Positions 36,073 through 51,873 of a stretch of 64,000 nt of DNA are shown in pieces. The notes beneath the pieces were generated by a model, which searched no databases, was not told where the DNA came from, and saw nothing but the letters and a program-made list of their open reading frames with translations. Position 1 is the stretch's first letter, and each line of letters opens with the position of its first letter. Position numbers and translations under genes: made by a program. Source of the DNA: an uncultured Planctomycetia bacterium (lineage in GTDB: Bacteria; Omnitrophota; Gorgyraeia; Gorgyraeales; Gorgyraeaceae); NCBI GenBank assembly GCA_964415355.1, contig CAYPYS010000001.1, forward strand, positions 1,361-65,360, written 5' to 3'.

Positions 36073-38796
36073 CTGTTCGCGTATTATCTTTTCGTCTATG
36101 GGCACGCTGGCAACCATGTTCTCTTCTTCGCCCAGGACACTAGCAGTCACGAATATCAATAAATTTCTGCGCTCTACATTATCCGTCTTTTTTCTGAATA
36201 ACCCGCCTACAAATGGAAGGTCGCCCAACACAGGAACCTTTGTCTTTATATTGGTATTTGTCTCCTTTATGAGTCCTCCCATTACAATCGTCTCTCCGCT
36301 ATCGATTATAACACTGGTACTTAAATTCCTTGTCTTAAACTGAGGTATAGAAACCTCTCCCGAATAAGAGAATGTACCAGAATCCTCGCTGACCTCCGGA
36401 GTCAACGCCAATGTTACAGTCTTCTTGTCTGCCCCCACGCTAGGCTTCACATGTAAAAGTATTCCAACGTCCCTGGTAACAAAATCCTGAGGGATATTCG
36501 CCCACTCTGTCTCGCCTGCGTCATCAAAATCTCCATCACCGTTTATGTCAAACTGCACCAGGCTGACCTCATACCTGGTAGGATAGATAAACTCATCTAT
36601 TACTTCTATCGTGGCTGTTTGATTATTTAATGTAGTTATCCTCGGAGCGGATAAAGTCTTTACATTTTGTTTTTCTTTTAAGGCATGCATTACAAACTGA
36701 AACTGCGGATGACTCAGTATCCCTTGATACGTCAGATTAAAACCTTCGGTTGCACGGGTGAAGCTCGAAAAATCCACGCCACTCCCCGAAGCAAACCCAT
36801 GTAAGTTCTGCTTTGAGTTATTTTGCTTAGCGCCCCAGTCGCTGTTTAATTTCCAATCGATGCCCAGCTCATCCACGTCCGTGACCTGCACCTCTAAAAA
36901 TCTCGCTTCAATCAATACCTGTACAGGCGTTACGTCAAGATTATAAAGCAGGTTTTCTACGATCTCTAAATTCGAGGGTATATTGCTTATGATAAGCGCG
37001 CCTGTCCTGTCATCGAGCGTCAACTTTGAATCCTTCGGCCAATCTACCGCGTTTTCAAGTATGTCCTTTACGGTACTGACCTCTGAAGACGAGTCGCCCT
37101 CTTCGCCGGAACTCCCTGAAAGTTCAGCAAATCTACCAATGCCTTGATTCATAAAATAAACCCTGGTCTCTACTTCTTCATTGTCCAGTTCTTCCTTAGT
37201 AGCTACCCATACAGCATCCTCTTCTATTCTGTAAACAAGGTCCTGGGATTTCAGTACATACCTCAGCGCCTCCTCAAGAGGCATGTCTTTTATCTTTATT
37301 GTAACCTTTTTCTCGGCCATATCGATATCGCTCGAAGGTATTATATTGACCCCTGTCGCCTCGGATAGAAAATTCAACACATAATCAAGTTCCACATCTT
37401 TAAAATCTACGCTTAACGGTATTTTTAATCTCTTCCTGATCTCCGGGACCTTTACCAGAGACACTATTTTTTTCTCTTTCTCTAAAATGCCGATCTTTTC
37501 ATCAGGTATAATATGCTTCTTGGCTATTTCCAAAAGCATCTTTGCTTCTACTATCTCGCGAGCCTTTTTAAAGGCCTCTTCCTCTTTTTTTATCTTCTGC
37601 TTATCTACATAATCCTTAACATCCTTAAACCTTCTGTTTTCCGGAAATTCGGCCATCGCTGTCCCGAGCATCTCTTCGGCATCCTCAAACTGCTCCTCCG
37701 CAACATGCACCCTTATGGCCTTCAGCAGCTCTTCTATTCTTGTAATCCTCTCTCTTAATTGCTGCTCCCTGAGCCTCTTTTCAAAAACTACCTTAAGCCT
37801 CTCCTTTTCCCTCTCTTTTTTAGCGCGCTCGGCCTCTTTTATCCTGTCTTCCCGCTCTTTCTCTATCTTTGCGCGCCGCGCCGCCTCCATCTTTGCCATG
37901 ACCGCCCGCTCTTCTTCCCTCTTTATCTCTTTTTGGGCGGATTCAATATAATATTCCGACCTGGAAACCAGGTCATTATCAGGGTCTAATTCCTTTACCT
38001 TTCTGAATTCTGCTATGGCCGTTGGATAATCTCTCATCTTATAATAACTCAGGGCCCTCTCGTATGCACTTTTTGTCTCCCGGGCCAATCTATGTTCTTG
38101 TTTCTTTCTTTCCTGCTCTATCGCCTTAAGGATCATCTCTTCTTCCTGCAATGCCCTCTTGCGAGCTTCTTCCCTCTTTATCTCTATATTCGCTTTTTGT
38201 ATATAAGATTCGGCCTCGGTTACAAAACGACTTTCTGGATCCAGATTTTTTATTTTTTTAAAATTCATTACCGCAAGAGCATATTTTTCATCAATATAAT
38301 ACTCGAGGGCCTTTTCATATGTATTTTCTATTTCCCGCGCGAGCTTTCTTTGTCCCTGCTCTATCGCCTTTAGCCTGTTTTCTTCCTCGACCAAAGCCCT
38401 CTCTTGCGCCTGTTGCTTTGCCAGCTCTTCTTCTTTAGCTATGCGCTCCGCCTCGCTTATTACGTCCTCCTCCATCCTCTGCCATCTCCTGTCCTCTAAT
38501 ACGCTCATCTCTTTTATTCTGGACCTGGACTTATCGATATATATCTCTGCGAAAGGCGTAAAATAAGACTCTCCCTGCGTCTTTTCCATCTCTATGATAT
38601 TCTCAAAAACAGAAATCGCCTCTTTATATCTTCCTGTCTCAAACAAGGACATCGCCTTTTCAAAATACTTCTTCAAATCCACTTTTGAAACCGAGATATT
38701 TTTGTTACTATATAGAGCGGTTTTGGCCAAGGCAAACGCCTGCCCGTTCGATAACAAAAGTGACAATATTAATATTATGCTTAAAATCTTTTTCAT
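36070..38796 (-). CDS. secretin (PilQ/GspD family) with ~600-aa N-terminal coiled-coil/TPR-like repeat extension
   Basis: The C-terminal 450 aa are paralogous to the adjacent secretin (PVLGDLPFVGGLFRKKTDNVERRNLLIFVTASVL). The N-terminal region has an internally repeated module (YEKALEYY...IKREEARKRALQEEE). Confidence 0.8.
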   Translation of the reverse strand: MKKILSIILILSLLLSNGQAFALAKTALYSNKNISVSKVDLKKYFEKAMSLFETGRYKEAISVFENIIEMEKTQGESYFTPFAEIYIDKSRSRIKEMSVLEDRRWQRMEEDVISEAERIAKEEELAKQQAQERALVEEENRLKAIEQGQRKLAREIENTYEKALEYYIDEKYALAVMNFKKIKNLDPESRFVTEAESYIQKANIEIKREEARKRALQEEEMILKAIEQERKKQEHRLARETKSAYERALSYYKMRDYPTAIAEFRKVKELDPDNDLVSRSEYYIESAQKEIKREEERAVMAKMEAARRAKIEKEREDRIKEAERAKKEREKERLKVVFEKRLREQQLRERITRIEELLKAIRVHVAEEQFEDAEEMLGTAMAEFPENRRFKDVKDYVDKQKIKKEEEAFKKAREIVEAKMLLEIAKKHIIPDEKIGILEKEKKIVSLVKVPEIRKRLKIPLSVDFKDVELDYVLNFLSEATGVNIIPSSDIDMAEKKVTIKIKDMPLEEALRYVLKSQDLVYRIEEDAVWVATKEELDNEEVETRVYFMNQGIGRFAELSGSSGEEGDSSSEVSTVKDILENAVDWPKDSKLTLDDRTGALIISNIPSNLEIVENLLYNLDVTPVQVLIEARFLEVQVTDVDELGIDWKLNSDWGAKQNNSKQNLHGFASGSGVDFSSFTRATEGFNLTYQGILSHPQFQFVMHALKEKQNVKTLSAPRITTLNNQTATIEVIDEFIYPTRYEVSLVQFDINGDGDFDDAGETEWANIPQDFVTRDVGILLHVKPSVGADKKTVTLALTPEVSEDSGTFSYSGEVSIPQFKTRNLSTSVIIDSGETIVMGGLIKETNTNIKTKVPVLGDLPFVGGLFRKKTDNVERRNLLIFVTASVLGEEENMVASVPIDEKIIREQ

Positions 38797-39323
38797 TCTC
38801 GTGCTCCGGGTTTTTCCTTCTTGGCTTTGAGGATTATTTCCTCTCCGCCTTTTTTCTGAAGCGCGACCTCTTTCTCGCTGATGCGTAAAACCTCGAAATC
38901 TCCAACCTTGCCGCCAGCCTCCGCAAAATAGCTTTTCCCCGTGCCCTGGTCTTCTATCACAACCATTATCTTCTCGCCCATCACTACCCTGCCTTTATAC
39001 TTCAGCACTGGTTCTTTCTTTTCTTCTTTCACAGCAATAGGCTCGACCACTACAATAGACTCACCCCTGACTCTAAAAAACGGGCTCCTCTTCAAAAGGG
39101 CTTTATAGCCGTCTGCTGCATCCTGCTCCTTAATAATACCGAAATCCCACTTATCTTTAAGCTGGGCCTTTTTCTTGGCCCTGCTCTTTTTCGTCGCAAG
39201 CTCTATCTCCTGCAGCAACTCCTGGGTTGCCTCCTTCTTTTTACCCTGCGAGAAAAACCCAAAAAGCAGCACCCCTATAAATACAGCGACAAGCGGCCAG
39301 AAAATAATCTTTTCTTTTATCAT
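38793..39323 (-). CDS. PilP-like pilus assembly lipoprotein (tentative)
   Basis: An N-terminal TM is followed by a C-terminal beta domain (YKGRVVMGEKIMVVIEDQGTGKSYFAEAGGKVGDFEVLRISEKEVAL). Confidence 0.4.
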   Translation of the reverse strand: MIKEKIIFWPLVAVFIGVLLFGFFSQGKKKEATQELLQEIELATKKSRAKKKAQLKDKWDFGIIKEQDAADGYKALLKRSPFFRVRGESIVVVEPIAVKEEKKEPVLKYKGRVVMGEKIMVVIEDQGTGKSYFAEAGGKVGDFEVLRISEKEVALQKKGGEEIILKAKKEKPGARE

Positions 39324-40084
39324 CCCTTTTCCGTCCTAGTCACCATGAATGTGCTCAAAACCAGGCTTACCTCTATATCGCTCTCTATTCCTTCAGAGCT
39401 TTTTAAATGTAGCTCTTTGACCGAGATCACAGGTGTTCTATTCTTAAGCTCCAGCAAAAGATTTACAAGCGATTCCGTATCCGTCTTCACTGAAAACTGC
39501 ACCGGCAATTCAGTGTAAAGCACCTCTTTGCTCAATGGCTCTATATAATCTATTGACCTCAACGGCTTTATCGCAGAAAATTCTATGTTCTCGCTCTCCA
39601 GTAATATGCCGACCGCGAGCTCCACTGTCTCCAGTTGCCTAAGAAGCGCCTCGACCATGCTATTTTTAGGGAGTCCGTCCCCAAAGCCTAGATTCTCAGG
39701 AAGCCCGACCTCTTTTGACGAAGCCTTTTCTGAAAATTTCTTCATCGACGCGTGCAGCCTCTCTATAAAATAAAGGCCTGCCTCGCTGCTCGAATCAGAA
39801 ATCCTGACCTTCGCAGGATCTACAAAATCTACGAGTTCCTGAAATTTATTATCCAGCTCCAATTTTTTTTCTTCGATCTTTTCAAAGCTATCCTTTGACG
39901 GCAGAGAACCTGTTCGCGCTATATATTTCTTTATCTCTACGGTTTTACGCTCAAGTTCGTCATCCAATATAGAGCTGCCTTCATTCATAAGCGGTCCTAA
40001 TACGAAAAGATACAGGGCCAATAATATGCCTATCACTATCGAGCCTTGTTTTAAAATAGCTTTTTCTTTCGCTGTTTTAAACAT
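39320..40084 (-). CDS. PilO-like pilus assembly protein (tentative)
   Basis: An N-terminal TM is followed by a coiled coil and a ferredoxin-like region. Position next to the PilM-N fusion supports the call. Confidence 0.4.
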   Translation of the reverse strand: MFKTAKEKAILKQGSIVIGILLALYLFVLGPLMNEGSSILDDELERKTVEIKKYIARTGSLPSKDSFEKIEEKKLELDNKFQELVDFVDPAKVRISDSSSEAGLYFIERLHASMKKFSEKASSKEVGLPENLGFGDGLPKNSMVEALLRQLETVELAVGILLESENIEFSAIKPLRSIDYIEPLSKEVLYTELPVQFSVKTDTESLVNLLLELKNRTPVISVKELHLKSSEGIESDIEVSLVLSTFMVTRTEKG

Positions 40085-40086
40085 CC

Positions 40087-41610
40087 CTAGCTCTCCGTCA
40101 CCACGTCCATGGTAATATTAAACTTTACTGTTTCCTCACCTGTCTTCTCGTCCACTTCCAGAGACGAGGATATCGGCTTTACATCTTCAAAGCTGGGAGA
40201 GGATTTCAGAGAAGATACAAATGAATTAACCGCCTGGTACGAAAGCGCCTTGCCTCCCAGGTCCAATCTGGCAAGTCCCCCTTTTTCCATGGAAACTATG
40301 CCCGATGCATCCGTAATCCAGACCTCTTCGGACAGTATCTCTGAAATAATACCAAGCACATCCAGCCAGATCGCCCTGGAGGAAGCCTGGTGATACAAGA
40401 TATCTATCTTTTCCATTAACACGTCTTCCTTGTCCTGCATCTTTTTTATCTTTGGTTCATAGGTCCTGTATACCTCAAGCATCTCGTCTACTTTATTCAT
40501 CTTGAGTCTCTTTACAGAATAATCCTGCCTCATAAATATAGAAAAACATATAAGCGTCAATGCCGCTACGGCAATAGAAAAACGGGAATATAATACCTTC
40601 TGACTATATGCATGTCTTTCGGAGATCATCTCTTTTAAAAAATTCACCTCTATCTTTAGATCTGTCATGCCCCTAAGCGCAAGCCCGATCGCAACGCCCA
40701 ACTGATTCTTAACCGTCTTCTTTGTCTCTAGATCCGAGAAGATTTCCTTTGAGATCCTTATCTTTCTAAACGGGTCCAGTATTTTAGCCTGGGTCTTGAA
40801 CTTGGACATAAGCTTTTGTTCCAATTCCTCGATCGCGCTGCCTCCGCCTGTCAAAAGCAACTCATCCAGTTTTTTTCCGCCTTGAGCATCCTCTCCGCTC
40901 TGCATAAAATAATATTCTATGGAACGTTCCACCTCTCCGATTATCTCTTCTATGCCCTGATCCTTTGACTCAGCAATCCTGTTCCCGGCTACAGGAAAAC
41001 TCCTGACCCATATATTATTCTTTTGAAAAATAACCAGGTTGGTAGTATTAGCGCCTATGTCCAATATAGCGCCCAGTTTTTCCCTGCTATAATCTTCATT
41101 GAATACCATGCAGTTATATAAACTTATAGGTTCGACATCTATTAAATCAGTAGAAAGCCTTATCGAATCCAACCTCGAGATTATATCCTCTATGATGTTT
41201 TTCTTGATGGCTACCACTACTGCCTTTTTTGTGCCTTTTTCTTCCCTGTCAAGCAATGACCAGTCCCAGGCCACTTCTGTCAGCGGAAAAGGTATCTGAT
41301 TCTGAGCTTCAAACTTCATAGTCTGCTTCAATTTATCTTCCTTGACCTGCAGGAGTTTTACGAATCTTATAAAGACAGATTGGCCCCCGACAGAGACATT
41401 TACGTGCTTCTCTTTGACATTGTTTTCGGATAACAGCTGAGATATTAGCTGAGTAATCGCCTTCTCCTTGTCAGCCTTTAAATTACTTGGTATCTCTTTG
41501 ACCCCGAATCTATTCAAGGTGATAGCATCTCCTGACCGGGCGAGTTCTGCAAATTTTATATAATGAGACCCTATATCCAATCCTATAGAGGTCTTCTTAA
41601 GCTTAGGCAT
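40087..41610 (-). CDS. PilM-PilN fusion protein (actin-like ATPase plus TM/coiled-coil PilN part)
   Basis: IGLDIGSHYIKFA is the PilM N-terminus. A C-terminal TM segment VAALTLICFSIF follows. Confidence 0.6.
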   Translation of the reverse strand: MPKLKKTSIGLDIGSHYIKFAELARSGDAITLNRFGVKEIPSNLKADKEKAITQLISQLLSENNVKEKHVNVSVGGQSVFIRFVKLLQVKEDKLKQTMKFEAQNQIPFPLTEVAWDWSLLDREEKGTKKAVVVAIKKNIIEDIISRLDSIRLSTDLIDVEPISLYNCMVFNEDYSREKLGAILDIGANTTNLVIFQKNNIWVRSFPVAGNRIAESKDQGIEEIIGEVERSIEYYFMQSGEDAQGGKKLDELLLTGGGSAIEELEQKLMSKFKTQAKILDPFRKIRISKEIFSDLETKKTVKNQLGVAIGLALRGMTDLKIEVNFLKEMISERHAYSQKVLYSRFSIAVAALTLICFSIFMRQDYSVKRLKMNKVDEMLEVYRTYEPKIKKMQDKEDVLMEKIDILYHQASSRAIWLDVLGIISEILSEEVWITDASGIVSMEKGGLARLDLGGKALSYQAVNSFVSSLKSSPSFEDVKPISSSLEVDEKTGEETVKFNITMDVVTES

Positions 41611-41828
41611 TATCTGTTCCTTCCGATTATATCTTTTAGCTTCCGTATTTCACTGGTAGTGTATTCCCGCCAGCCATTTACAGCATTGCGCTTGGGCTTC
41701 GGGAATACCTTTTTGTTCTCGTAGCGTATCAATGTCTGCTTGGATATCCCCAGAAACTCTGCGGCCTCTGTAGCGGAATAGAATTTTTCTCTCTTCATAA
41801 GCATCACCTCGCTCATTTGCATCTCCAT
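41610..41828 (-). CDS. small MerR/excisionase-type HTH DNA-binding protein
   Basis: YSATEAAEFLGISKQTLIRYENK is HTH-like. The gene overlaps the pilMN start by 1 nt. Confidence 0.55.
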   Translation of the reverse strand: MEMQMSEVMLMKREKFYSATEAAEFLGISKQTLIRYENKKVFPKPKRNAVNGWREYTTSEIRKLKDIIGRNR

Positions 41829-41912: not shown

Positions 41913-41951
41913 ACTAACTTTACATTTCAACAATGTTAAAGTGTAAACTTA
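41913..41951. repeat. 39-bp repeat, copy 24 (A)
   Basis: It lies between the 607-aa secreted protein gene and the HTH gene. Confidence 0.9.
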
Positions 41952-41961
41952 CGCGGGTGGG

Positions 41962-43785
41962 TTATTCTTCTTTCCAGAATCTGAAGGGCTTTTTCTTTAA
42001 TTTCTCTGGAATAATAAAGCTCTTTTTGCCTATGGTCCAGGTCCTCTCTGCCGGCACAGGGTCTATTTCGTCTTCGTCGATCTCTTCGTTGTTATTAACG
42101 TCCTTGGCAGCCTGTACCTTGAAATAATGATTGCCCTGGGCCAGATCTTCTTTGCGAATAGAGTCTTCTGCCGACCATTCTGACCATTCTTCATTGTCAA
42201 ACTTATACCTGAATATGCAATCAGACGCTGTAGCCTTAAAAGTAAATAACGCGCTTGTGGCCTTTGTGACCGCGCTCGGCCCGCTGGTAATTATAGTATC
42301 AGGGGCAGTTATAATAAGCTCTATAGTATCACTGAATATCTCTGATTCGTTGCCAGCAGTATCCTTGAATTTCACATAGACCTTGCGCGTGCCGCTTATG
42401 GCAGGCAATGCCCAATTATCCTTGTTCGCGGCAAAGGTTTCCCATGCCTCTGTATCAAAAACGCCATCATTGGAAATAGACATGCTCTGGACTTCTGTTA
42501 TGGAATCGCTGGCACTCAAAATAAGATCCACGTAGATTGAATTTGTCAATGCGTCCTGATTATTAATAATAATAGTGCCTGTGGGCGGCCTTGTATCAAC
42601 CGTAAAACTCCAGACCAGAGGCGAAGTGGCGTTTCCAACAAAGTCGCTGACTTCCAGGGATACTACATTGTCTCCTTCGCTCAAAGGAATGGACGGTATA
42701 TATACAACGCTCTGAGCCCCTTCGTCATAAGTTGCTGCTGCAGAAGATTTGTTTACTGTCATATCTATGGCATCCGGGTTAATGCCGCTATACTCATCTG
42801 AAGCATCGATCGAAATAGTAGGAGTATCCGTAGATATAATAATGCCATTTGTAGGCGTATACGAACCTACTGAAGGCGCAGTCCTATCTACCCAAATCTC
42901 AAAGGAAGCTACCTCTGTCCAATTTTTGGCCGTATTCTGACCCTTTAGGTTAAACACCCTTATGCCATCTGATAAAAGATCGCCCGGCGTCTGGTACGAG
43001 AAGCCCGTAGTATCGATCTCATCATCTGGTATGCTGCCCCAAGAAAAACTATAGCCAACCAAGTCTGCCCCGGTCACTGGATATTCCCAATACATATAAG
43101 GATTCCCGCAATCCTGCCATAACTTCGCGGGCACATCGTCGCCCACGGCAGAGACCCTTGCCCAGATTATAGGTGTTTCTATATCTGCAGCGGTAAGCCT
43201 GAATCCAGACGTAGCTACCTGCCAACCAGAATAATCAAAACCATCGCTGGTCCTGACGCGCCACCTGTAGCTCACCCCGGCCTCATCAGTAGGAAGTATA
43301 GGCGTTGTGTAACTGGTGTCGCTCGAAGAGATCAACCCGGAGTCAATCACAGTCGTAACAAAATTATCCTTTGAGACCTGGACCTGATAATAGCGCTGGG
43401 TGTCATCGTCTTTATCGCTGTAATTCCATTCGAGGCTGGGCGTGTCATCTACGGTCAACTCGCCATCATTAAAAGAAGCGATCGCGACTTCGGGAATAGT
43501 ATTATAGGTAGGCAGGCCTCCGCCGTATATCTTGTAATTTGTCCCTGTAGCAACAGCTGTCGCCACAGGAGAACCCATGCTGTTCTCGGAATTATAACTG
43601 GTGGAAGCAGTGCTAGTGCCTCCGCCGTCTGCTATTGTCGTCTGGAGTTTATAATTATCACTGCTCGAAACCGCTGCCAAGGATACGCTGCAGCAAATAA
43701 AAAAGACCGCTATAAAAAATACAGCGGCCTTAAATACAGAGATATCACTCCTGCATCTCATCATAATATATATTATAATACTCAA
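41962..43785 (-). CDS. secreted hypothetical protein (signal peptide; Ser/Thr-rich N-region)
   Basis: 607 aa with an N-terminal hydrophobic leader. I recognise no family. Confidence 0.4.
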   Translation of the reverse strand: MSIIIYIMMRCRSDISVFKAAVFFIAVFFICCSVSLAAVSSSDNYKLQTTIADGGGTSTASTSYNSENSMGSPVATAVATGTNYKIYGGGLPTYNTIPEVAIASFNDGELTVDDTPSLEWNYSDKDDDTQRYYQVQVSKDNFVTTVIDSGLISSSDTSYTTPILPTDEAGVSYRWRVRTSDGFDYSGWQVATSGFRLTAADIETPIIWARVSAVGDDVPAKLWQDCGNPYMYWEYPVTGADLVGYSFSWGSIPDDEIDTTGFSYQTPGDLLSDGIRVFNLKGQNTAKNWTEVASFEIWVDRTAPSVGSYTPTNGIIISTDTPTISIDASDEYSGINPDAIDMTVNKSSAAATYDEGAQSVVYIPSIPLSEGDNVVSLEVSDFVGNATSPLVWSFTVDTRPPTGTIIINNQDALTNSIYVDLILSASDSITEVQSMSISNDGVFDTEAWETFAANKDNWALPAISGTRKVYVKFKDTAGNESEIFSDTIELIITAPDTIITSGPSAVTKATSALFTFKATASDCIFRYKFDNEEWSEWSAEDSIRKEDLAQGNHYFKVQAAKDVNNNEEIDEDEIDPVPAERTWTIGKKSFIIPEKLKKKPFRFWKEE

Positions 43786-43802: not shown

Positions 43803-43841
43803 CTAACTTTACATTTTAACGTTGTTGAAATGTAAAGTTAG
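43803..43841. repeat. 39-bp repeat, copy 25 (B)
   Basis: It lies between the giant GspK-like gene and the 607-aa protein gene. Confidence 0.9.
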
Positions 43842-46800
43842 CGCTCGAAAACAACCCAGATCTTCTTTTCAGAAAGCACCCTGTCTTCGTCCAGTGTCTG
43901 GGCAGTTACAATTATCCTATATACATCTGAATGAACAGTGACCAGGTTTGAGATCTGTCTGAATCTATCTCTCTTATCCTCGTCTTCTCTACCCAAGGCG
44001 TCTGTAGAAATCAGGTCGCCTATACCAAGACGAAGACCATTATTGTCGCCAAATATTCTATTTGCAACTATGTCATCTGCGATGCCCTCGTCTATCCCCG
44101 GGAGCGCACTGAGCACTTTTTTAGAAGCTGTGTTGATGTTTATCTTGCCGTCGATAGTATTTACCGGGTCAAGCCTTATAAAATCAAAATGCGCTCCTCC
44201 TGTCTTTGAAACATTTTTTATCTTCAGCTCAAGCTCATTGCTCGGCGTGGAGACTTCGCTATCTGTTCCTATCTCTATATTCCCAAAAAGCACGCTTCCG
44301 CCTGGCCCAGGACTAAGCGGAGGCGTAAACGCAGTCCACGTATCGTCAGCAAGATGTAACGACACTGCGATCTCTTCTTCCTCTTCTCCAAATATCCTTA
44401 ATGTATAATACCCGTTTCTAATTCCGTCTTTTTCTTCCCATCGCCATACGCCAACCGAATCTCCTTCTCCTTCCTCCTCCTCATCGTCTTCTTCGCTTTC
44501 GGCAGCCTCACCATTCTCAAAATGATCAGTCAAAGGTGATGCCCTCTGAACCATTTTCCATGCACCTTCAGAACCAGGCACGATATGGTCCTCTGCCTCA
44601 AGTCTTATGCCAAAAACCGTCAATCTATCGGCTATCTTGGATACATCCTCTAAAGGCACGGCATCCCACTCTTTAAGGCCGGATGAAACAAAACCTATCT
44701 CGCCAACTGATGAAAAATTCTTATTCTTTACAACTACCTCTGTGATGTCGTGCTCTATTATCTCTTTTTCAATCTGGCCTTCCACCTCTATCTCTTCTAT
44801 CATCCCTTCATTATCATTTGGCAAACCAGGAGTTGCGCCATCTTCTGCGTCTGATGTATACCAACCTTCGGGGATACCATTTAGATTTGAATCAACTACA
44901 TAGCTGGGATCTGACCGCTCCAGACTTTTATTCGCAGGGATCCCACCGCTAAAATATTCCGCTGCGTCAACAATGTGGCCCATTGGATCTTTTAGAGTTA
45001 TGATATTTCCGTCAGGGTGCGGCTCGTTAGAGAGTAAATCAGAGCCCGGCACAACTGCTTTTACAAAATGAAGCTCGGCTGATTTTTCCTGTCCCCATAT
45101 AGACACAAACGATATATCGTTTCCCTGGATGCCGTCCTGCGAATCATCTCTATCAACGCAGAGCACAAGGTGCTCGTCCGGGCCAATGACCGTGCCGAGC
45201 GGAATAGACGCTGGCCAGCCCTGCTTGCTCGGGCCCTCGACGCTCCAGCCGCCAAGATTCACCTCGTTGGATGTGAGATTTACGAGCTCGATGTATTCAG
45301 CGTCTGGCTCCTGTGTCAATTCTATTGACTGAAAATAAGCGGACCCTGAATTCAGATTATTTTGCACTCTCACCGTGATCTTTTCATTAGAGACAGTAAT
45401 AGTCTTGCCGCCTCCGAACAATTCTCCGTCCAACATGTCTCTTGAGCGAGCGCCTCCTATCTCTACATCCCCCACCTCTTGACCCTGCATGCCAAACACC
45501 TTTACATAATATTGGCCGTTCGGCACACCCTGCCAGGTCCAATCCCCTTCGCCGGTCTTGCCGCCATTAGGTTCATCATTCTGAAAATAACTGCCCTGCC
45601 AGGTCCAATCCCCTCCGGGATCCTGTCCGTTAAAACTAGCCAATGAAGTGCTGGGCCTTGCCATTATTTCATTGATCCTTATACCCTCCACGCCCCGGAC
45701 CTCGACAGCACTAAAGCCTTCCTGTCCTAACCTGGGATATAATTCCAGATAGGAAAAATAACAGACTTCGTCTTCCTCTTTATTTTCCACTGTCAATTCG
45801 AGCATGTCCCTCTCTTCAAAAGAAACAGTGCCTATCCTTAATATCTCGCCGTGCCTCACTGAACCCTGACTCACACCATTAATGGCAACATCCCCTACGT
45901 ATTCACCCGCGACGCCGAACACGCCGATATAAAATTCCCCCTCGGGTAAATTCAACCACGTGATTACCAAAGGCTCGCTATCTTCGACATCGCTTTCATA
46001 GTGTCCGCCCCTCCAAACCCAATCACCTATGGGGCCTCTGTTCACAGCGCTCAGCCTATTGTATAGCTTCGACACCACGCTCTGACTGAAATCTTCGTCG
46101 CATGCATCTATTATGTTCACTGCTTTTTGAAACGGGTCACTTGCGCCTGCGTCTTCGAGGAGAACTAAAAGCGTAGCAGCGTCCATAAAATTTATGTTTT
46201 CCCTGAGCCTTCCTTCTACGTCTAAATTTTTATCCGGAGAGTACGAGGTAATATAAGGGTATATCTTTGTAAAATCACTTTCTTTTATGGATTGGATTTT
46301 GGCTAGTTCAAAAGGTGTTTCGAACGCATTGTCATCCGCGTACGGAGAAGATGGGACAAATTCCATTGGCTCGTCAATGCCTTCGCCCGCCTCGTCTATT
46401 ATGCCGTCCGCATTGTTGTCTATGCCGTCCGCGGCCAGGATCCTTTGGTTATCATTGTCATCCACCCCCATCTCTCCAGGCTCGCCGTCCAGGCCCAACC
46501 TGTGATCCAATATATCTTCGTATGTTTTCTGGGAATCACTCAACTCAAAAGAGGCGAGGAACGATTGGAGATCGAGTTCGTGCGGTGTCCAGCCTTCTGT
46601 AACCTTCAGTGGAGAGATATTTTGTTTGTCAGCGATGTTTATGTTTAGAAAACCTGACTCGTCCCTGACTAAAACAGCGTAACGACCGATAGGCTCATTC
46701 AGATCATCGTAAACATATATCCATTTTGAATCAAGCTCGCCGTCGCCGTCATTGTCGACATCAAAGCCCTCGAAAAGCGTAGCCCATGCGTCTTGGAAGC

Positions 46801-47023
46801 TATCGATATCCGGTTCGTCTTCCTTTATCACAGCCTGGGCATAGGTAACGCCGGACTCTGCAAGATACGAGGCTCGTGTCGCTTCTAAAAAGTTGGAGGC
46901 GGATTTCAACTCAAGCCTCATGGTAAAAGCAAAAGACACGGCCATTATGCCAGCGACCGCAAGTATGCTCACGACCAGTATAAGAGCGATACCTTTATTA
47001 TTACTATTACCCATGTCCCTCAT
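43838..47023 (-). CDS. giant GspK/PilX-like minor pseudopilin (1061 aa) with C-terminal helix-hairpin-helix
   Basis: The N-terminus GIALILVVSILAVAGIMAVSF is a pseudopilin-like TM. The C-terminus ININTASKKVLSALPGIDEGIADDIVANR is an HhH as in GspK/ComEA. Confidence 0.5.
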   Translation of the reverse strand: MRDMGNSNNKGIALILVVSILAVAGIMAVSFAFTMRLELKSASNFLEATRASYLAESGVTYAQAVIKEDEPDIDSFQDAWATLFEGFDVDNDGDGELDSKWIYVYDDLNEPIGRYAVLVRDESGFLNINIADKQNISPLKVTEGWTPHELDLQSFLASFELSDSQKTYEDILDHRLGLDGEPGEMGVDDNDNQRILAADGIDNNADGIIDEAGEGIDEPMEFVPSSPYADDNAFETPFELAKIQSIKESDFTKIYPYITSYSPDKNLDVEGRLRENINFMDAATLLVLLEDAGASDPFQKAVNIIDACDEDFSQSVVSKLYNRLSAVNRGPIGDWVWRGGHYESDVEDSEPLVITWLNLPEGEFYIGVFGVAGEYVGDVAINGVSQGSVRHGEILRIGTVSFEERDMLELTVENKEEDEVCYFSYLELYPRLGQEGFSAVEVRGVEGIRINEIMARPSTSLASFNGQDPGGDWTWQGSYFQNDEPNGGKTGEGDWTWQGVPNGQYYVKVFGMQGQEVGDVEIGGARSRDMLDGELFGGGKTITVSNEKITVRVQNNLNSGSAYFQSIELTQEPDAEYIELVNLTSNEVNLGGWSVEGPSKQGWPASIPLGTVIGPDEHLVLCVDRDDSQDGIQGNDISFVSIWGQEKSAELHFVKAVVPGSDLLSNEPHPDGNIITLKDPMGHIVDAAEYFSGGIPANKSLERSDPSYVVDSNLNGIPEGWYTSDAEDGATPGLPNDNEGMIEEIEVEGQIEKEIIEHDITEVVVKNKNFSSVGEIGFVSSGLKEWDAVPLEDVSKIADRLTVFGIRLEAEDHIVPGSEGAWKMVQRASPLTDHFENGEAAESEEDDEEEEGEGDSVGVWRWEEKDGIRNGYYTLRIFGEEEEEIAVSLHLADDTWTAFTPPLSPGPGGSVLFGNIEIGTDSEVSTPSNELELKIKNVSKTGGAHFDFIRLDPVNTIDGKININTASKKVLSALPGIDEGIADDIVANRIFGDNNGLRLGIGDLISTDALGREDEDKRDRFRQISNLVTVHSDVYRIIVTAQTLDEDRVLSEKKIWVVFER

Positions 47024-47053: not shown

Positions 47054-47092
47054 CTAACTTTACATTTCAACAACGTTAAAGTGTAAAGTTAG
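47054..47092. repeat. 39-bp repeat, copy 26 (A)
   Basis: It lies upstream of the GspK-like gene, next to the terminator. Confidence 0.9.
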
Positions 47093-47093
47093 C

Positions 47094-47133: not shown

Positions 47134-47176
47134 CAAAACTTAAAACAAAATCACGTTGTAAAAATATCAATGCCCG

Positions 47177-47851
47177 CTATTTGCCCTTAACCTTATTCAC
47201 TAAATCCTGTATCATTTTCCCAGCAATATCCTTTGAGCCAAGACCGACAGCTATTGCCAGCGCCAGACCAAAAGAGGCAAGGATAATATTGATGGCAAAA
47301 TTCAGGACAGACGACGCGATATTCAGCTGTTCTAATGTTATTATAGATGCGAATATCATGATAAGCGTCTGCGTTAACTGGCCTAAAAACTTTGCCTGCG
47401 TGATCCCTGCGTTACTGGAGGCAGTGCGAACTATGGTGCCGATCATGCTGGAGAAGAATATACCCAGGGCCAGTATAAACACAGCCGCAATTACATTAGG
47501 TATATACAGAATGACCTTGTCGAGCAATGAAGCCGCCACTGTCATCCCAAGGGCATTTAAGGCAGTCATAAACACCATTAACATTATCAGCCAATAAATA
47601 AGTACGCCTATCAACTCAGAAAGAGTCTGCCTTATGCCGCCGCGCCTCAACACATCGCCAAGACCTGCCTTCTCACTCGCAGTGTCCAGCTGGATCAGCT
47701 TCAACACCTTTACCACTAGACTTTTAAGCATCCCCGCTATGATCCATCCTACTATAAGTATTATAAGGACGCCTAGAAGCGTAGGTAAAAATCCAGCTAT
47801 CCTCCCCAGCATCTCTGCTACTGGAGTCATAACCACAGCATTCCAATCCAT
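47177..47851 (-). CDS. MscS-related 'conserved TM helix' repeat membrane protein
   Basis: A four-TM protein with repeated TM-helix modules, resembling the N-terminal module of small mechanosensitive channels. Confidence 0.45.
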   Translation of the reverse strand: MDWNAVVMTPVAEMLGRIAGFLPTLLGVLIILIVGWIIAGMLKSLVVKVLKLIQLDTASEKAGLGDVLRRGGIRQTLSELIGVLIYWLIMLMVFMTALNALGMTVAASLLDKVILYIPNVIAAVFILALGIFFSSMIGTIVRTASSNAGITQAKFLGQLTQTLIMIFASIITLEQLNIASSVLNFAINIILASFGLALAIAVGLGSKDIAGKMIQDLVNKVKGK

Positions 47852-47921
47852 ACGTCACCTCCCTTTCTCTAAAGAGTGAAGTATACCTTATCAACTCCCA
47901 ATCGTCAAGGGTAGCGAGCCT

Positions 47922-47945
47922 ATGTCATTCCCGCGAAAGCGGGAA
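47922..47945. repeat. GC-hairpin repeat ATGTCATTCCCGCGAAAGCGGGAATCCATAA (copy 4 of 4; 31 nt identical to the copy at 22961-22991)
   Basis: Read directly from the sequence. It lies between the MscS-like gene start and the GT9 gene end. Confidence 0.8.
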
Positions 47946-47948
47946 TCC

Positions 47949-47985
47949 ATAAAATGCCTAAGCTTACTTTCAACAATGTTAAATG
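47949..47985. repeat. 39-bp repeat, copy 27 (degenerate, A-like)
   Basis: CTAAGCTTACTTTCAACAATGTTAAATGTAAACTTAG lies next to GC hairpin copy 4. Confidence 0.75.
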
Positions 47986-47990
47986 TAAAC

Positions 47991-49196
47991 TTAGGTGGAG
48001 AGGAAGGATTTGACTTTTTTAAAGATGTCTTCGGGCTTGATATTTTTTAAGCAAATGCCTTCTTTGCACGGCGATTTTCTGTGATTATAGACATTCAGGC
48101 AGGGACTGCAGACCAAATCTGAATCTATAGATATTTTGTCGCTATCTCCTTCTCCGTATAAACGAGACGTCTCTGGTCCGAAAAGTATTATGACTTTTAT
48201 GGGAACCAGGGTCGAAAAATGAGCCGGTCCGCTGTCGCTCGTCACCAATAAATCTGCGACACAGTACAAAGTCAAAAGTTCTCTCAGCGAAGTCTCTCCG
48301 GCGAGAGAAATCGCGTCCCCCATCCTATATGCCAGCATCTTGCCCTTTTCTTTTTCTCCGGCAACGCCTGTAATGATAATGGTCGCGCGGGGAAATTCTT
48401 GCAAAATCATCCTCGCCAGTTTCACATAGTTTTCTTCAGGCCAACGCCTCACCTGCAACAGATCATCCATGTCAGGATTCAAAAGTACTATTGGGCTGGT
48501 CAGGTTTGACTTTTTCACGCCCTCGATTTTTTTTACCAGCGCACTTTTCTCGCTTTCACTGGGGGAAAAAACAGGAAGTCCTTCGGTCACATCCGGGGTC
48601 TTAAAGCACATGGGTTTATTATCAGGCGACGGGCAATGATTAAGGGCCTCTACCAATGTTGCGAACAAGACCCTTGTGTGCAGGTATGGATTATATACAA
48701 GCCTGTGAGTAAAAAGATCTCCTCTATAAGGGCCTTCGCAGGTGAACAAGTGAAACCCGACTCTCTTATCAGCCCCGGAAAGATACGAAAGGATAGCAGA
48801 GCCCCTGGAGAAAAATTCCATATCTATGGCAGCGTCTATTTTTTCTTTCCTGATTCTCGCAAGTGCCTTTATCAAGGACAAAATCATGCCGCCAGGAGAG
48901 CTCGGATCTATCTCTATTATATTTTGCGACGGCAGTATATCGAATATATCCAATATATGGCGGTTTTCTTTAAAGACTAAAAAATAAAGATTATCTTTCC
49001 CCACCATACCAGCTGCCTTTTTTAACGCCTGATAGGCGAGCATCGTGGAACCCTGCTCTATTAATTTTATGAAGAGGATTTTGGAGGGATGGCCTGTGTC
49101 TTCGTTATCTTTTTTAAGATTTCTACACACCGTGAGCAAAAAACAAAACACGCTGCCGACGTTCCTGTCTAACCACCGAATAACTCCCTGATTCAT
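47991..49196 (-). CDS. glycosyltransferase family 9 (heptosyltransferase-like)
   Basis: The GT9 fold is present (ILFIKLIEQGS...GPETSRLYGEGD). The start is moved to MNQGVIRW past the repeat artefact. Confidence 0.65.
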   Translation of the reverse strand: MNQGVIRWLDRNVGSVFCFLLTVCRNLKKDNEDTGHPSKILFIKLIEQGSTMLAYQALKKAAGMVGKDNLYFLVFKENRHILDIFDILPSQNIIEIDPSSPGGMILSLIKALARIRKEKIDAAIDMEFFSRGSAILSYLSGADKRVGFHLFTCEGPYRGDLFTHRLVYNPYLHTRVLFATLVEALNHCPSPDNKPMCFKTPDVTEGLPVFSPSESEKSALVKKIEGVKKSNLTSPIVLLNPDMDDLLQVRRWPEENYVKLARMILQEFPRATIIITGVAGEKEKGKMLAYRMGDAISLAGETSLRELLTLYCVADLLVTSDSGPAHFSTLVPIKVIILFGPETSRLYGEGDSDKISIDSDLVCSPCLNVYNHRKSPCKEGICLKNIKPEDIFKKVKSFLST

Positions 49197-49233
49197 GTCA
49201 CTATTGTAACCTGCGCTAATAGGGATTTCAACC

Positions 49234-49272
49234 TTAACTTTACACTTTAACATTGTTGAAGTGTATACTTAG
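49234..49272. repeat. 39-bp repeat, copy 28 (B variant), first of an inverted tandem pair
   Basis: TTAACTTTACACTTTAACATTGTTGAAGTGTATACTTAG. Confidence 0.85.
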
Positions 49273-49311
49273 GTAACTTTACATTTCAACAATGTTAAAG
49301 TGTAAAGTTAG
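49273..49311. repeat. 39-bp repeat, copy 29 (A), second of the inverted tandem pair
   Basis: GTAACTTTACATTTCAACAATGTTAAAGTGTAAAGTTAG. Confidence 0.9.
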
Positions 49312-49751
49312 TATTGGGGGAGGGTGAGGGTGTGGTTTTGTTCGCCGTCGGTGAGAACCACTTTGTCTTTTTTTATCTCCGCTACAGCATACCCGCCGAT
49401 CTTATCTCCTACCCCCACTAGATTATCGTTTATCATGGCAAGAGGCGCACTGTCATCCCAGAGTATGCCTGTCAAGACCATGTCAGAAAGAGTTGCCGGC
49501 TCAGAGGTCGATGGACCAGAGGAAAATGGGTCACGGCCCCAGTCAGAAAAATCAGTCCTTCTCGGCCGTTTTGTATTAGAGGTAATATTTATTTCTGCAG
49601 TAACTGCTCTTTGCTTTTTAATGTCCGCAGGCTTATTGGAAAGCTCACGTCTTACTTTTGAAGGAGTAAGTATGCCATAAATCAAACTGCAAACAGCTGC
49701 GATCCCTAAAACAATCAATAAGATCAATTTTTTATTCTGCATTTTAGTCAC
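49308..49751 (-). CDS. PilP-like protein (tentative)
   Basis: An N-terminal TM is followed by the C-domain LTGILWDDSAPLAMINDNLVGVGDKIGGYAVAEIKKDKVVL, which is PilP/GspC-like. Confidence 0.45.
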   Translation of the reverse strand: MTKMQNKKLILLIVLGIAAVCSLIYGILTPSKVRRELSNKPADIKKQRAVTAEINITSNTKRPRRTDFSDWGRDPFSSGPSTSEPATLSDMVLTGILWDDSAPLAMINDNLVGVGDKIGGYAVAEIKKDKVVLTDGEQNHTLTLPQY

Positions 49752-50265
49752 CCGAAAGGCACATATTTACCGTCAAGACAGCATTTATCCTTCCTGCCTT
49801 GTCTGTGTCAGAACTTAGATTAAGTTCTTTTACTGTAACCAGGCTTTTTTCCAGCTTTTCCAGTGAGCCTAAAAATATAAAAAATTCTTTATATGTCGAG
49901 TTTAGCTTTATATCTATAGGCAGGATCTTATACTTGGAATCCTTTGAGTCCTTTATTTTCCCAGGAGCAATAGAGATAAAATTAATACCCTTTGATCTGC
50001 CTTGTTTGGTAAATTCATCTATTGCTATAGATATATCTTTTTCGGATATCAGCACCCTCTTCGTTCCGGACTGCCTTAAAGCATCTATTGCCTCGCGCGC
50101 CCGCAATGCCTCTGCCTCGATATTTCTACATTCACCTCTTGCCAGGCTGCATTTATTGATAAGCGGCCTGTACAGAAAAAGGTATAACCCGAGAACAAAA
50201 ATCACCCCCGCGCTTACTATTATCATCGGCCTTTCTCGAATCTTAACCCATAAGACGTGACCCAT
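49744..50265 (-). CDS. PilO-like protein (tentative)
   Basis: An N-terminal TM is followed by a coiled coil. The gene lies downstream of the PilM-N fusion. Confidence 0.45.
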   Translation of the reverse strand: MGHVLWVKIRERPMIIVSAGVIFVLGLYLFLYRPLINKCSLARGECRNIEAEALRAREAIDALRQSGTKRVLISEKDISIAIDEFTKQGRSKGINFISIAPGKIKDSKDSKYKILPIDIKLNSTYKEFFIFLGSLEKLEKSLVTVKELNLSSDTDKAGRINAVLTVNMCLSGD

Positions 50266-50280
50266 AACTTATAATTCCTT

Positions 50281-51873
50281 CTAATCTACCCAACACTCCA
50301 GCTCAAACTCATTACCAACCTTACCCCTGATCTCTTTCGTGCTGATCAATCTTACATCTTTAAATATACCTTTTTCCAGGTCAAGTATAAAGCCTGATAG
50401 TAATCCTTCAGGCTCACTGGAAGCTACTACGCCTCGAATCCTAATGGCCTTATCTTTCACTATAACTCCCGTAAGGTAAATATTATCGGAAATTATGTTG
50501 CTTAATTCTTTAAATACATCTTCCCAGTATGGCTCATTCAGCAGGATCTCTTCCGCCAGATACTTGGCCTCCACTTCGGCCATCTGCGGCCCTAGGCTTA
50601 ACATCTCTGTTTTACTTGCAGCGATTCTTTTTTGAAAAACTGACAGCTGGATTCTCAGCCCTGTATAGACAAGGGCTAGCATAATGACAATGCCTGCGGC
50701 TATGCCCTGCACAGTAGCGCGCTTAAAAGTCCTCTTTGTCTTCTCTTTAATTTCCGGCGGGAGTAGATTTATGCCCTTTGCCTCGCTCAAGGCTGCTCCT
50801 ATAGCTATACCCAGGCGGTGCGTGTCAGCAGATAGCGACGCATCTATCGCACCTGACCTGACCTTGAGGCCCTTTAGGAAATTCTCGGCTTTTACCTCTA
50901 TCCCTAATTCGTCCGAAAGAAAATCCTTTAGGCCTTTAAGAGATGACCCGCCGCCCAGTAAAGCCAATGACTCGATCTTACCGCCATCTGTCTCCTCTCT
51001 GTAATAATCAAGGCACCTGTCTATCTCGCTTACCAGCTGCTCCAGTGGCGGCCTGATCATAGAAAGAATTTGAATAGTAGAGATCTTATCCTCTACCATT
51101 TCAGATTTTCCTTCACCAGGTATGCCGATCTCTCGTTTTATCCTCTCTGCATCCTCCAATGAAAGCTCTGTCTTGCCTCTATCAGAAACCAGGACCCCTG
51201 TCATCTCTTTAGTGATATTATCTCCTGCCACAGGTATCTTGCGGGAAAATATAAGATCCTTTCCTTTAAATATAACCAATTCTGTATGCCGCATTCCTAT
51301 GTCGAGAAAACACCTGGCTTCATTTTCATTAGAATGCAAGGCCTGGACAAATCTCTGCATTGCATACGGAATAGTGATAAACGAGTCTGGTTTTATACCA
51401 ACTCCTGCCAATAAAGATAAATATTTATCAATGGTCTTCTTAGGCGAAGCAGCTACCAGGATCTGATATTTCTTGATCCCTTTATCAACAACATCACCCA
51501 GGATCTGAAAATCTATTAACGAGTCATCCACTGGAAACGGAAAATAATTTTTTGCAGCCAGCCTTATGGCATCGCGAAGCTCTGATTTCGGCATATAAGG
51601 CGCTGTTACCTTTTTTATCGCGGTCCTGGGGCAATCGACAGTAACAATAAAGTGAGAATTTTTAATATCGATCTTTCTGATGATCTTCTTAAGAAGCTCT
51701 TTTATCTCTTTTTCGCGCCTTGCCTCATCATCCGTATAGTCGATCTCTTTCAAATCCGCCTTTACCAGTTTCAGTCCTTCTGGTGTTTTTAGAAACTGGG
51801 CAAATTTTATAGATGATGACCCGATGTCCAGACCCACTATGTAATCTTTTTTCAATATATTCATCATTTTCAT
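50281..51873 (-). CDS. PilM-PilN fusion protein (second copy)
   Basis: VGLDIGSSSIKFA is an actin-like fold. A C-terminal TM IAAGIVIMLALVYTG follows. Confidence 0.65.
   Translation of the reverse strand: MKMMNILKKDYIVGLDIGSSSIKFAQFLKTPEGLKLVKADLKEIDYTDDEARREKEIKELLKKIIRKIDIKNSHFIVTVDCPRTAIKKVTAPYMPKSELRDAIRLAAKNYFPFPVDDSLIDFQILGDVVDKGIKKYQILVAASPKKTIDKYLSLLAGVGIKPDSFITIPYAMQRFVQALHSNENEARCFLDIGMRHTELVIFKGKDLIFSRKIPVAGDNITKEMTGVLVSDRGKTELSLEDAERIKREIGIPGEGKSEMVEDKISTIQILSMIRPPLEQLVSEIDRCLDYYREETDGGKIESLALLGGGSSLKGLKDFLSDELGIEVKAENFLKGLKVRSGAIDASLSADTHRLGIAIGAALSEAKGINLLPPEIKEKTKRTFKRATVQGIAAGIVIMLALVYTGLRIQLSVFQKRIAASKTEMLSLGPQMAEVEAKYLAEEILLNEPYWEDVFKELSNIISDNIYLTGVIVKDKAIRIRGVVASSEPEGLLSGFILDLEKGIFKDVRLISTKEIRGKVGNEFELECWVD

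Follow-up and report, generated by a model that had tools for sequence, protein, structure and literature searches.

Why would a bacterium carry two inner-membrane alignment platforms of a type IV filament machine beside a single assembly ATPase? The question arises from a 64,000-nucleotide stretch of DNA (the window; positions 1,361 to 65,360 of contig CAYPYS010000001.1, assembly GCA_964415355.1) from an uncultured bacterium filed under Planctomycetia and placed by GTDB in the Omnitrophota. All long open reading frames (ORFs) from 33.5 to 60.2 kb of the window lie on the minus strand, as do all the genes of this interval described below, and they include two sets of genes for a PilM-PilN fusion, a PilO-like protein and a PilP-like protein. 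Set 1 (MN1-O1-P1) occupies 41610-38793 and set 2 (MN2-O2-P2) 51873-49308, exactly the positions and sizes given by a sequence-only reading of the window, which took the sets for a duplicated platform feeding one PilB/PilC pair and proposed two distinct filaments, or a type IV pilus plus a type II secretion system (T2SS)-like machine sharing an ATPase.

Here we find that the window holds two modules of one type IV filament apparatus, like that of the type IVa pilus (T4aP) or T2SS, which diverged long ago, are conserved separately and stand side by side through what looks like a recent rearrangement. The motor, platform and fibre genes occur only in module 2, which contains set 2, the secretins only in module 1, which contains set 1; both modules encode a K-like tip protein and an L/M/C-like cage, each in a version of its own. 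We establish what the parts are, how deep their paralogy runs, that the modules are conserved and complementary and that their adjacency is recent, and we propose, at a probability of roughly 0.45, that the two sets are alternative platform-and-tip sets sharing motor, pilins and secretins after duplication and reciprocal loss.

Domains were called by Pfam and NCBIfam profile scans with curated cut-offs, families were compared with each other by hhalign and single proteins by BLASTP, and folds were searched with Foldseek. The sequence covered comprises the window and 10 kb past each of its ends, ~84 kb in all from a contig no shorter than 371 kb. The relatives are 174 fetched loci from other sources, labelled L with a number; L171 is a copy of the window region from the same organism. 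Homologues bear the names Candidatus Omnitrophota or Omnitrophica, with Candidatus Gorgyraea atricola 68% identical for MN1.

Identity and paralogy of the two sets

MN1 (507 aa, 40087-41610) and MN2 (530 aa, 50281-51873) are each a single ORF, with no soluble cytoplasmic PilM apart from PilN, and both score above the cut-offs of the PilM families PilM_2 (PF11104, cut-off 27 bits; 129.1 and 134.9 bits) and TIGR01175 (cut-off 133; 151.4 and 149.9) and of the PilN family (PF05137, cut-off 22.8; 35.4 and 26.8). The PilN match falls in the C-terminal 80 residues, with one transmembrane (TM) helix ahead of it, so that the fusions of ~510-530 aa noted in the sequence-only reading are borne out. MN2, placed by sequence alone, aligns end to end with the Thermus PilM 2YCH (E 4e-29). 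For MN1 we made an AlphaFold2 model (pLDDT 84), which contains an actin-like domain (residues 1-313), a short linker, a helix (326-425) and an alpha-beta domain (430-503); the helix is continuous in the model and is predicted to comprise the TM segment and a coiled coil. The solved folds nearest to this model are those of PilM (5EOU, 2YCH and 3JC8, E 1e-28 to 1e-23), far ahead of FtsA (E 1e-16) and EpsL/GspL (E 1e-9).

Homology to the cell-division protein FtsA, which the earlier reading had named as an example of what would overturn its assignment, was rejected: the ftsA equivalog TIGR01174 scores 19.7 and 38.2 bits for MN1 and MN2 against a cut-off of 175.85, and the general Pfam FtsA actin-like domain is weakly matched (24.8 and 49.7 bits), as expected of sister families. 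GspL identity was likewise rejected, as the Pfam and NCBIfam scans reported no GspL family for either protein and the MN1 fold is nearer PilM than EpsL/GspL.

The N-terminal INLLP motif of PilN binds PilM. It is kept in MN2 at residues 368-372, immediately ahead of the TM helix, with N369, L370, L371 and P372 invariant in 19 orthologues; where MN2 has INLLP, MN1 has VNFLK, a degenerate form of the motif. The PilM domain of MN1 is also short by about 36-43 residues near position ~215-225, probably through the absence of subdomain 2B, and this shortening is a trait of the strict MN1 clade; the related proteins of L022 and L028 match PilM_2 in one unbroken stretch. Invariant in the MN1 family are D12/G14, D184 and G255/G256, in the phosphate and adenosine motifs of the actin fold, which we read as putative nucleotide-binding residues.

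Each fusion is followed by a PilO-like and a PilP-like gene, as the earlier reading had stated. O2 (173 aa, 49744-50265) matches the PilO family at 33.1 bits (cut-off 22), and its family profile reaches the solved PilO structures 3JC8 and 2RJZ (E 2.6e-10). O1 (254 aa, 39320-40084), a homologue of the Amuc_1100 family, passes the T2SSM_b cut-off (24.1 bits, cut-off 21.7), reaches 14.2 bits (cut-off 22) with the PilO model PF04350 and gives a marginal PilO match when its family profile is compared with the Protein Data Bank (PDB; E 0.086). By hhalign, the C-terminal domain of O1 shares ancestry with the O2 family (85%, E 6e-6), and both proteins belong to the PilO/GspM group and have an N-terminal hydrophobic segment in their sequences.

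P1 (176 aa, 38793-39323) and P2 (147 aa, 49308-49751) are TM-anchored proteins resembling PilP and the HR domain of GspC. P2 scores 19.1 bits with T2SSC, below the cut-off, and its orthologue in L138, where a secretin comes directly after it, scores 24.7 bits. The P1 family and P2 are homologous nearly end to end (hhalign 96%, E 3.8e-9). Their family profiles found nothing meaningful among PDB sequences, so that a fold comparison was needed, in which P1, modelled from database homologues, has a predicted PilP fold; both carry the HR (secretin N0-binding) beta-domain of PilP/GspC. As read from their sequences, P1 and P2 start with an N-terminal hydrophobic helix (3-58 in the model) and have no canonical lipobox, in place of the lipoprotein anchor of PilP, and they stop just after the beta-domain with no PDZ match, lacking the C-domain of GspC.

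MN1 and MN2 share 25% identity over their full length (E 8e-27), and BLASTP found no significant similarity between O1 and O2 or between P1 and P2, whose homology is visible by profile comparison only. Because the fusions are this divergent and the O and P pairs are detectable by profile only, the two sets are, judging from sequence, ancient paralogues. On a crude neighbour-joining tree of PilM-PilN proteins, MN2-type proteins form an Omnitrophota clade of their own, and MN1 groups with secretin-linked PilM-PilN proteins of other Omnitrophota, Verrucomicrobiota and Planctomycetota. The 25% identity and the separate clades exclude a recent tandem duplication; the term duplicated used in the sequence-only reading is thus right for paralogy and wrong for a local event.

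The fusion itself turns out to be ordinary. All complete PilM homologues that we recovered are at least 500 aa long, save a few with evidently mis-set starts, and nearly all have a hydrophobic segment soon after the PilM domain. Across the Omnitrophota, Planctomycetota and Verrucomicrobiota spanned by these homologues, the PilM-PilN fusion appears from sequence to be the norm and no peculiarity of this locus, contrary to its earlier treatment as a special feature. The literature searched for natural PilM-PilN fusions turned up solely the textbook statement that PulL/GspL corresponds to such a fusion (PMC10191384), and surveys of Omnitrophota report T4aP as common and describe neither the fusion nor a second set (PMC10066038).

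Given the short PilM domain and the VNFLK sequence of MN1, and O1 and P1 barely at family thresholds, one set might be a decaying, non-functional remnant of an old duplication. We consider this very improbable, as it is largely refuted by conservation. All six ORFs are intact; the set 1 proteins are 60-90% identical (P1 41-85%) in strict synteny across the 13 loci with an MN1 of 60% identity or more; the MN1 family shows no change in its nucleotide-binding motifs, the model of MN1 is confident, and the NLLP residues are invariant in MN2; and homologous proteins of Akkermansia are abundantly expressed (PMC5332112).

Two modules with complementary gene content

Module 2 reads, in order, sensor kinase and response regulators, PilB, PilC, a GspG-like pilin, GspI- and GspJ-like pilins, a PilX_N/GspK-like protein, MN2, O2 and P2. 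Dozens of loci keep this order at 36-87% identity, with PilB, PilC, the pilin, MN2, O2 and P2 all together in 26 loci, and more than 120 clusters of MN2 proteins show 50% identity or more. The PilB/GspE-type assembly ATPase (55669-57363; T2SSE 471 bits) is the sole copy in the window; it passes the GspE equivalog TIGR02533 (655.8, cut-off 630), falls short of the PilB equivalog TIGR02538 (658.3, cut-off 675.65) and has an MshE-type c-di-GMP-binding motif at its N-terminus (NF053729, 52.9, cut-off 38). The PilC/GspF platform protein (54455-55669) matches T2SSF at 207 bits, with the PilC and GspF equivalogs below cut-off (GspF 368 versus 424). The major (pseudo)pilin (53980-54429) is GspG-like, with the class III signal GFTLIE, N_methyl at 33 bits and T2SSG at 32.3 bits (cut-off 21), and its GspG equivalog score is 59.8 versus a cut-off of 88.85. 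Two minor pilins with N_methyl matches follow at 53102-53977, one GspI/PilV-like (115 aa) and one GspJ-like (172 aa), their best NCBIfam matches being GspI and GspJ, below cut-off. Next comes a 398-aa PilX_N/GspK-like, pilin-like protein (51909-53105; PilX_N 29 bits, cut-off 25.5) with a beta-helix C-terminal part of Bactofilin-like repeats and a weak GspK N-terminus, which is the candidate tip protein of module 2.

Upstream of pilB, at 57408-60195, lie a GAF-HisKA-HATPase sensor kinase and four single-domain response regulators, and kinase and regulator genes precede PilB in most module 2 loci. The signalling array of which they are part is unusually dense, comprising at 57408-63996 three sensor kinases (one with GAF, one dCache-HAMP and one with a sub-threshold GGDEF-like tail), a double-receiver protein and the four single-domain response regulators.

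No second PilB or PilC was found by tblastn in the window, none lies in the 10 kb past either end, and the ~84 kb covered hold no PilT or PilD and no second major pilin. The sequence-only proposal of two subcomplexes feeding one PilB/PilC is therefore sound as to the single PilB/PilC and the one major pilin in the window, while the sharing it implies is a reasonable inference; its proposal of two distinct filaments finds no support in a window that has only one major pilin. Module 2 of this window has no secretin. Where at least 2.5 kb follow P2, neither a secretin nor module 1 is found there in 26 of 28 distinct module 2 loci, the two exceptions being L138, with its own secretin right after P2, and L174, with a GT9 gene and the first module 1 gene.

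Module 1 reads, in order, an MS-channel-like protein, a 1061-aa GspK-like protein, an Ig-domain protein, a MerR-type HTH regulator, MN1, O1, P1, a secretin with tetratricopeptide (TPR) repeats, a second secretin and a LacI-family regulator, so that set 1 does run into two secretins, as first reported. The block is fully syntenic in ~12 species, and MN1 orthologues at least 48% identical occur in only 12 species representatives. An ATPase, PilC or major pilin is found in none of the module 1 loci.

The first secretin (908 aa, 36070-38796; Secretin 137 bits, TPR and STN) has an N-terminal TPR and charged coiled-coil extension, and the second (499 aa, 34527-36026; Secretin 146 bits) aligns by BLASTP with the C-terminal half of the first over 458 aa at 58% identity. 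Each has an N0/STN domain, and the best NCBIfam match of both is Amuc_1098_fam (209.5 and 211.8 versus a cut-off of 750). Tandem secretin paralogues are widespread in Omnitrophota (L001, L003, L016, L028-L030 and L034), and the pairing of a TPR-secretin with a tandem paralogue may represent a pilotin-secretin fusion and/or a heteromeric secretin. The highly charged TPR and coiled-coil extension is ~440 aa long in this clade; the TPR protein is a separate gene in L028, and the L022 secretin bears AMIN and TPR domains.

The first conserved gene of module 1 (47177-47851) encodes a 224-aa membrane protein with MS-channel TM-helix repeats (PF05552, 73.5 bits); it is 68-90% identical and syntenic in seven module 1 loci, always ahead of the giant GspK-like gene, and is among the best-conserved genes of the module. 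The giant protein itself (1061 aa, 43838-47023; LTD, HHH_3, T2SSK and PilX_N) is a GspK-like, pilin-like protein with a lamin-tail domain and a C-terminal HHH motif. It scores 68 bits with GspK NF037980, below the cut-off of 130, and its N-terminus matches Verru_Chthon cassette protein A; we regard it as the candidate tip of module 1, either a filament-tip adhesin or a DNA-binding tip. It also carries the poly-acidic stretch EEDDEEEEGEGD. The next gene (41962-43785), syntenic in all module 1 loci, encodes a 607-aa signal-peptide protein with Ig-like domains (Ig_Rha78A_N and Big_13), a candidate adhesin or cargo. Its residues 20-102 match weakly the NCBIfam CPR-type pilus protein PamT (29 bits, cut-off 240), and another weak match is to the Leptospira surface protein OmpL47.

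Abutting MN1 is a 72-aa ORF for a MerR/HTH_17-type regulator (41610-41828), a small gene that recurs in L001, L003 and L172, and the region's best sigma-70-like promoter lies just upstream of it at 41905-41877 (scan score 11/12). The LacI-family gene (33532-34530) overlaps the stop codon of the second secretin and is the last gene of the module. It is conserved at 74-79% identity with biotin synthesis genes after it, an odd partner for a secretin operon.

A recent junction between modules that are otherwise unlinked

The two modules are adjacent only here and in L174, an 84%-identical relative. Upstream of module 1, no module 2 genes occur in any of the seven loci that have 1.8-3.9 kb of upstream sequence, and in the closest relative (90% identical) the contig begins at the HTH gene. 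With the other module absent from these seven and from 26 of the 28 module 2 loci, adjacency loses the meaning that the sequence-only reading gave it, and functional linkage was rejected as a conclusion from adjacency, the modules being unlinked in almost all relatives. The earlier reading made too much of the fusion and of the adjacency alike.

The junction is marked by a GT9 heptosyltransferase-family gene (47991-49253, Pfam) that is part of neither machine and stands between P2 and the MS-channel-like gene in this window and L174 only. Exactly at the P2-GT9 junction of L174 lies an IS200/IS605-type Y1 transposase (L174 6217-6711), and a 74%-identical relative has lipopolysaccharide (LPS) genes after P2. 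The upstream context of the window (Kdo genes, kinase, response regulators and pilB) is the module 2 context of L009, and the downstream context (LacI, bioB, bioF and bioD) is the module 1 context of L003 and L172. Since the flanks match the contexts of separate modules, and given the transposase in L174 and the LPS genes in the 74% relative, the adjacency looks like a recent rearrangement in a narrow clade.

Other relatives are organized as single clusters. L028 has a complete cluster of PilT, PilB, PilC, pilins, one PilM-PilN fusion, two small proteins, a TPR protein and two secretins, and in the L022 variant GspG-like pilins lie directly upstream of a module-1-like block. Both L028 and L138, the latter with a secretin of its own in module 2, fit an ancestral complete operon.

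Alternative platforms for a shared motor

Taking these observations together, we propose that an ancestral complete operon was duplicated and that the copies then lost complementary genes. Module 2 would be the engine and the fibre, made up of PilB/GspE, PilC/GspF, the GspG-like major pilin and the GspI-, GspJ- and GspK-like minor pilins, with an inner-membrane cage of its own in which MN2 would supply a PilM ring tied covalently to PilN, O2 its PilO and P2 the adaptor to the secretin. Module 1 would contribute the two tandem secretins, a second cage of MN1, O1 and P1, the giant GspK-like tip and the Ig-domain protein. The two cages would then be alternative platforms with alternative tip proteins, both drawing on the motor and pilins of module 2 and on the secretins of module 1. 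That the components are shared, and that the cages serve as alternatives and not jointly, we infer from the complementary gene content. The individual parts are ordinary, and it is their complementary split that suggests component sharing between the gene sets.

Several points weigh against this proposal. Other PilB, PilT, PilC and pilin genes serving module 1 may lie outside the ~84 kb covered, and both modules have been seen in one genome only for this organism and its 84% relative. Module-1-like clusters in L025, L028 and L029 have their own PilT, PilB, PilC and pilins, so that a dedicated motor for an MN1-type cage exists in the phylum. L028, where tandem secretins stand beside a single cage, tells us that two secretins do not imply two cages, and the neighbour-joining tree that separates MN1 from MN2 is midpoint-rooted and without support values.

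The main competing explanation is one of two independent machines: module 1 would be the pilMNOPQ-type operon of a separate T4aP-like pilus whose motor and pilins lie elsewhere in the genome, much as pilMNOPQ, pilBCD and pilA are unlinked in Pseudomonas, module 2 would be a T2SS-like machine that at most borrows a secretin, and their adjacency would be accidental. The unlinked modules of almost all relatives, the PilT-PilB-PilC-pilin genes of MN1-like clusters in other Omnitrophota, the pilins directly upstream of the L022 block and the recent, transposase-marked junction all agree with such an arrangement. However, no second ATPase, PilC or major pilin turned up in the ~84 kb covered, module 1 is consistently without these genes in this clade, and module 2 needs a secretin, for which module 1 is the one source seen; on balance we hold two independent machines to be unlikely, if a serious contender.

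PilN and PilO are paralogues that heterodimerise, and one may also imagine a single composite machine in which both cages surround one PilC/PilB in mixed or concentric rings, each P protein contacting one secretin paralogue. Complementary content, two P adaptors with two secretins that each have N0/STN, and the conservation of both sets would all suit it. We think it improbable, because two tandem secretins exist with one cage (L028), module 2 is far more widespread (more than 120 MN2 clusters at 50% or more) than the strict MN1 clade (12 species representatives at 48% or more), the modules are not co-located, unlike usual obligate partners, and each has its own K-like tip protein.

Sharing of components between alternative cages, the proposal that we prefer, can be carried one step further. 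Reciprocal loss might route one PilB/PilC and one pilin pool through two cage-and-tip sets to the shared secretin pair, giving two outputs from one engine with two adaptors, one by way of MN2-O2-P2 and the 398-aa beta-helix tip, the other by way of MN1-O1-P1, the 1061-aa lamin-tail-domain tip and the Ig protein. This extended version strikes us as rather doubtful. If it were true, one motor would yield two functionally different filaments or outputs, such as a pseudopilus for secretion alongside a pilus for adhesion or host contact, and Amuc_1101-1098 of Akkermansia would be an adaptor module and not a pilus in itself.

If the cages do share a motor and a secretin pair, the locus would illustrate how type IV filament machines re-use modules in nature, and would give a handle on output specificity through the tip pseudopilin and the L/M/C-like cage. 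For annotation, PilM and PilN are normally one protein, PilM-like and not GspL-like, in Omnitrophota and the other PVC-type genomes sampled, and the widespread Omnitrophota operon labelled T4aP is T2SS-ordered and usually without a secretin. The make-up of the machine is also relevant to the lifestyle of Omnitrophota, which have been proposed to be host-dependent nanobacteria whose pili are thought to mediate attachment (PMC10066038).

Repeats and flanking features

A near-perfect palindrome of 35-37 bp, (T)AACTTTACAYTTYAACA|WTGTTRAARTGTAAAGTT(A), occurs in 29 copies in the window, against none expected (for example at 36037-36071, 41916-41950, 43805-43839, 47056-47090, 49236-49270, 49275-49309, 57375-57409 and 58620-58654). 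It is always intergenic, often begins exactly at the TAA stop of the upstream gene, and creates spurious N-terminal ORF extensions reading MLKCKV at 30170-31387, 31441-32433 and 47991-49253. Two copies stand as a doublet after P2, with a folding energy of -40 kcal/mol (z -10.9). Among the fetched loci the palindrome has further copies only in L171 and is absent from L174 and from all 174 loci of other sources, and it falls in no Rfam family. Candidate interpretations are a REP-like element and a terminator hairpin; its mobilisation as a REP element by the Y1 transposase of L174 is unsupported, the palindrome being absent from that locus. The stretches from pilB to P2 and from the HTH gene to the TPR-secretin are each free of it, and each therefore looks like one compact operon.

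Several metagenome-assembled genome (MAG) records with clusters of the Omnitrophota or PVC type (L010, L012, L023, L024, L031, L079 and L087) are titled 'uncultured Planctomycetia', 'Chitinophaga sp.' or 'Chitinophaga pinensis', probably through taxonomic mislabelling or bin contamination. At the left end of the window lie three tRNA genes (354-427, 1381-1454 and 1473-1547), and the window also has a dprA-topA-xerC-like trio (5709-9825); the same trio stands upstream of the Amuc-type cluster in L005 and L006, which is probably common housekeeping synteny.

Comparison with known type IV filament systems

In T4aP and T2SS, the ring of PilM contacts PilB and PilC, the periplasmic cage consists of PilN-PilO heterodimers, and the HR domain of PilP/GspC binds the N0 domain of the secretin. 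Compared with the PilM-PilN-PilO-PilP-PilQ systems of P. aeruginosa, M. xanthus and T. thermophilus, the roles are here too ordered M, N, O, P and secretin, MN1 and MN2 are true PilM proteins by profile and MN1 also by predicted fold, O2 matches solved PilO, P1 has the predicted PilP fold and MN2 retains the INLLP motif of PilN. Unlike in those systems, PilM and PilN are joined in a single polypeptide, the P proteins have a TM anchor and are not lipoproteins, the secretins are two in tandem with one fused to TPR, and the M-N/O/P sets are two and paralogous. The major pilin is GspG-like, the PilB equivalog score is just below its cut-off, and no PilT lies in the window or the 10 kb on either side.

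The T2SS, with GspL-GspM-GspC and GspE, GspF and GspG-K, resembles module 2 in gene order, and the ATPase of module 2 passes the GspE cut-off. By contrast, no GspL match is reported for the fusions, the P proteins stop short of a PDZ or coiled-coil C-domain such as GspC has, the GspF, GspG, GspI, GspJ and GspK equivalogs are all below cut-off, and GspD is absent from module 2 here, although module 2 of L138 has a secretin. The sequence-only pairing of a type IV pilus with a T2SS-like system holds as far as operon type goes, set 2 belonging to a T2SS-ordered operon and set 1 to a pilMNOPQ-like one.

In the mannose-sensitive haemagglutinin (MSHA) pilus, MshI likewise joins PilM-like and PilN-like parts in a single protein, and PilO-like and PilP-like proteins and a secretin come after it. 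A point of resemblance in module 2 is the MshE-type c-di-GMP motif of its ATPase; on the other side, the secretins score 164 and 154 versus an MshL cut-off of 250, and no other Msh-specific family is among the NCBIfam matches.

A parallel to set 1 and its secretins is the Amuc_1098-Amuc_1102 cluster of Akkermansia muciniphila, whose products are abundant envelope proteins (PMC5332112) and which, like module 1, is without an ATPase. Its order, with PilM-like Amuc_1101, Amuc_1100, the Amuc_1099 position and the secretin Amuc_1098, is that of set 1 and the secretins, and a more distant relative, L005, reads Amuc_1102, a PilM-like protein, Amuc_1100, an unnamed protein and a secretin. The best NCBIfam match of MN1 is Amuc_1101_fam (238 bits versus a cut-off of 650), and the Amuc_1100 family score is 21.9 versus a cut-off of 180, so that the Amuc_1101, Amuc_1100 and Amuc_1098 equivalogs all fall below cut-off. 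Homology links the O1 family to the Amuc_1100-type protein found in L005 (hhalign 94.7%, E 5.8e-8), and that protein in turn matches the crystal structures of Amuc_1100 (6LAD and 6KNY). Because of these best family matches and the homology of O1 to an Amuc_1100-type protein, set 1 is, by clear sequence homology and synteny, the Omnitrophota counterpart of Amuc_1098-1102. What sets module 1 apart from the Akkermansia cluster is its possession of the giant GspK-like protein, the Ig protein, the HTH regulator, the second secretin and LacI; in addition, the PilM domain of MN1 is shortened, and no Amuc_1102 homologue was detected. The Amuc_1101, Amuc_1100 and Amuc_1098 families can accordingly be annotated as the PilM-N, PilO/GspM and secretin components of an alignment module of this kind, an assignment that bears on the interpretation of Amuc_1100, the therapeutically studied 'pili-like protein'.

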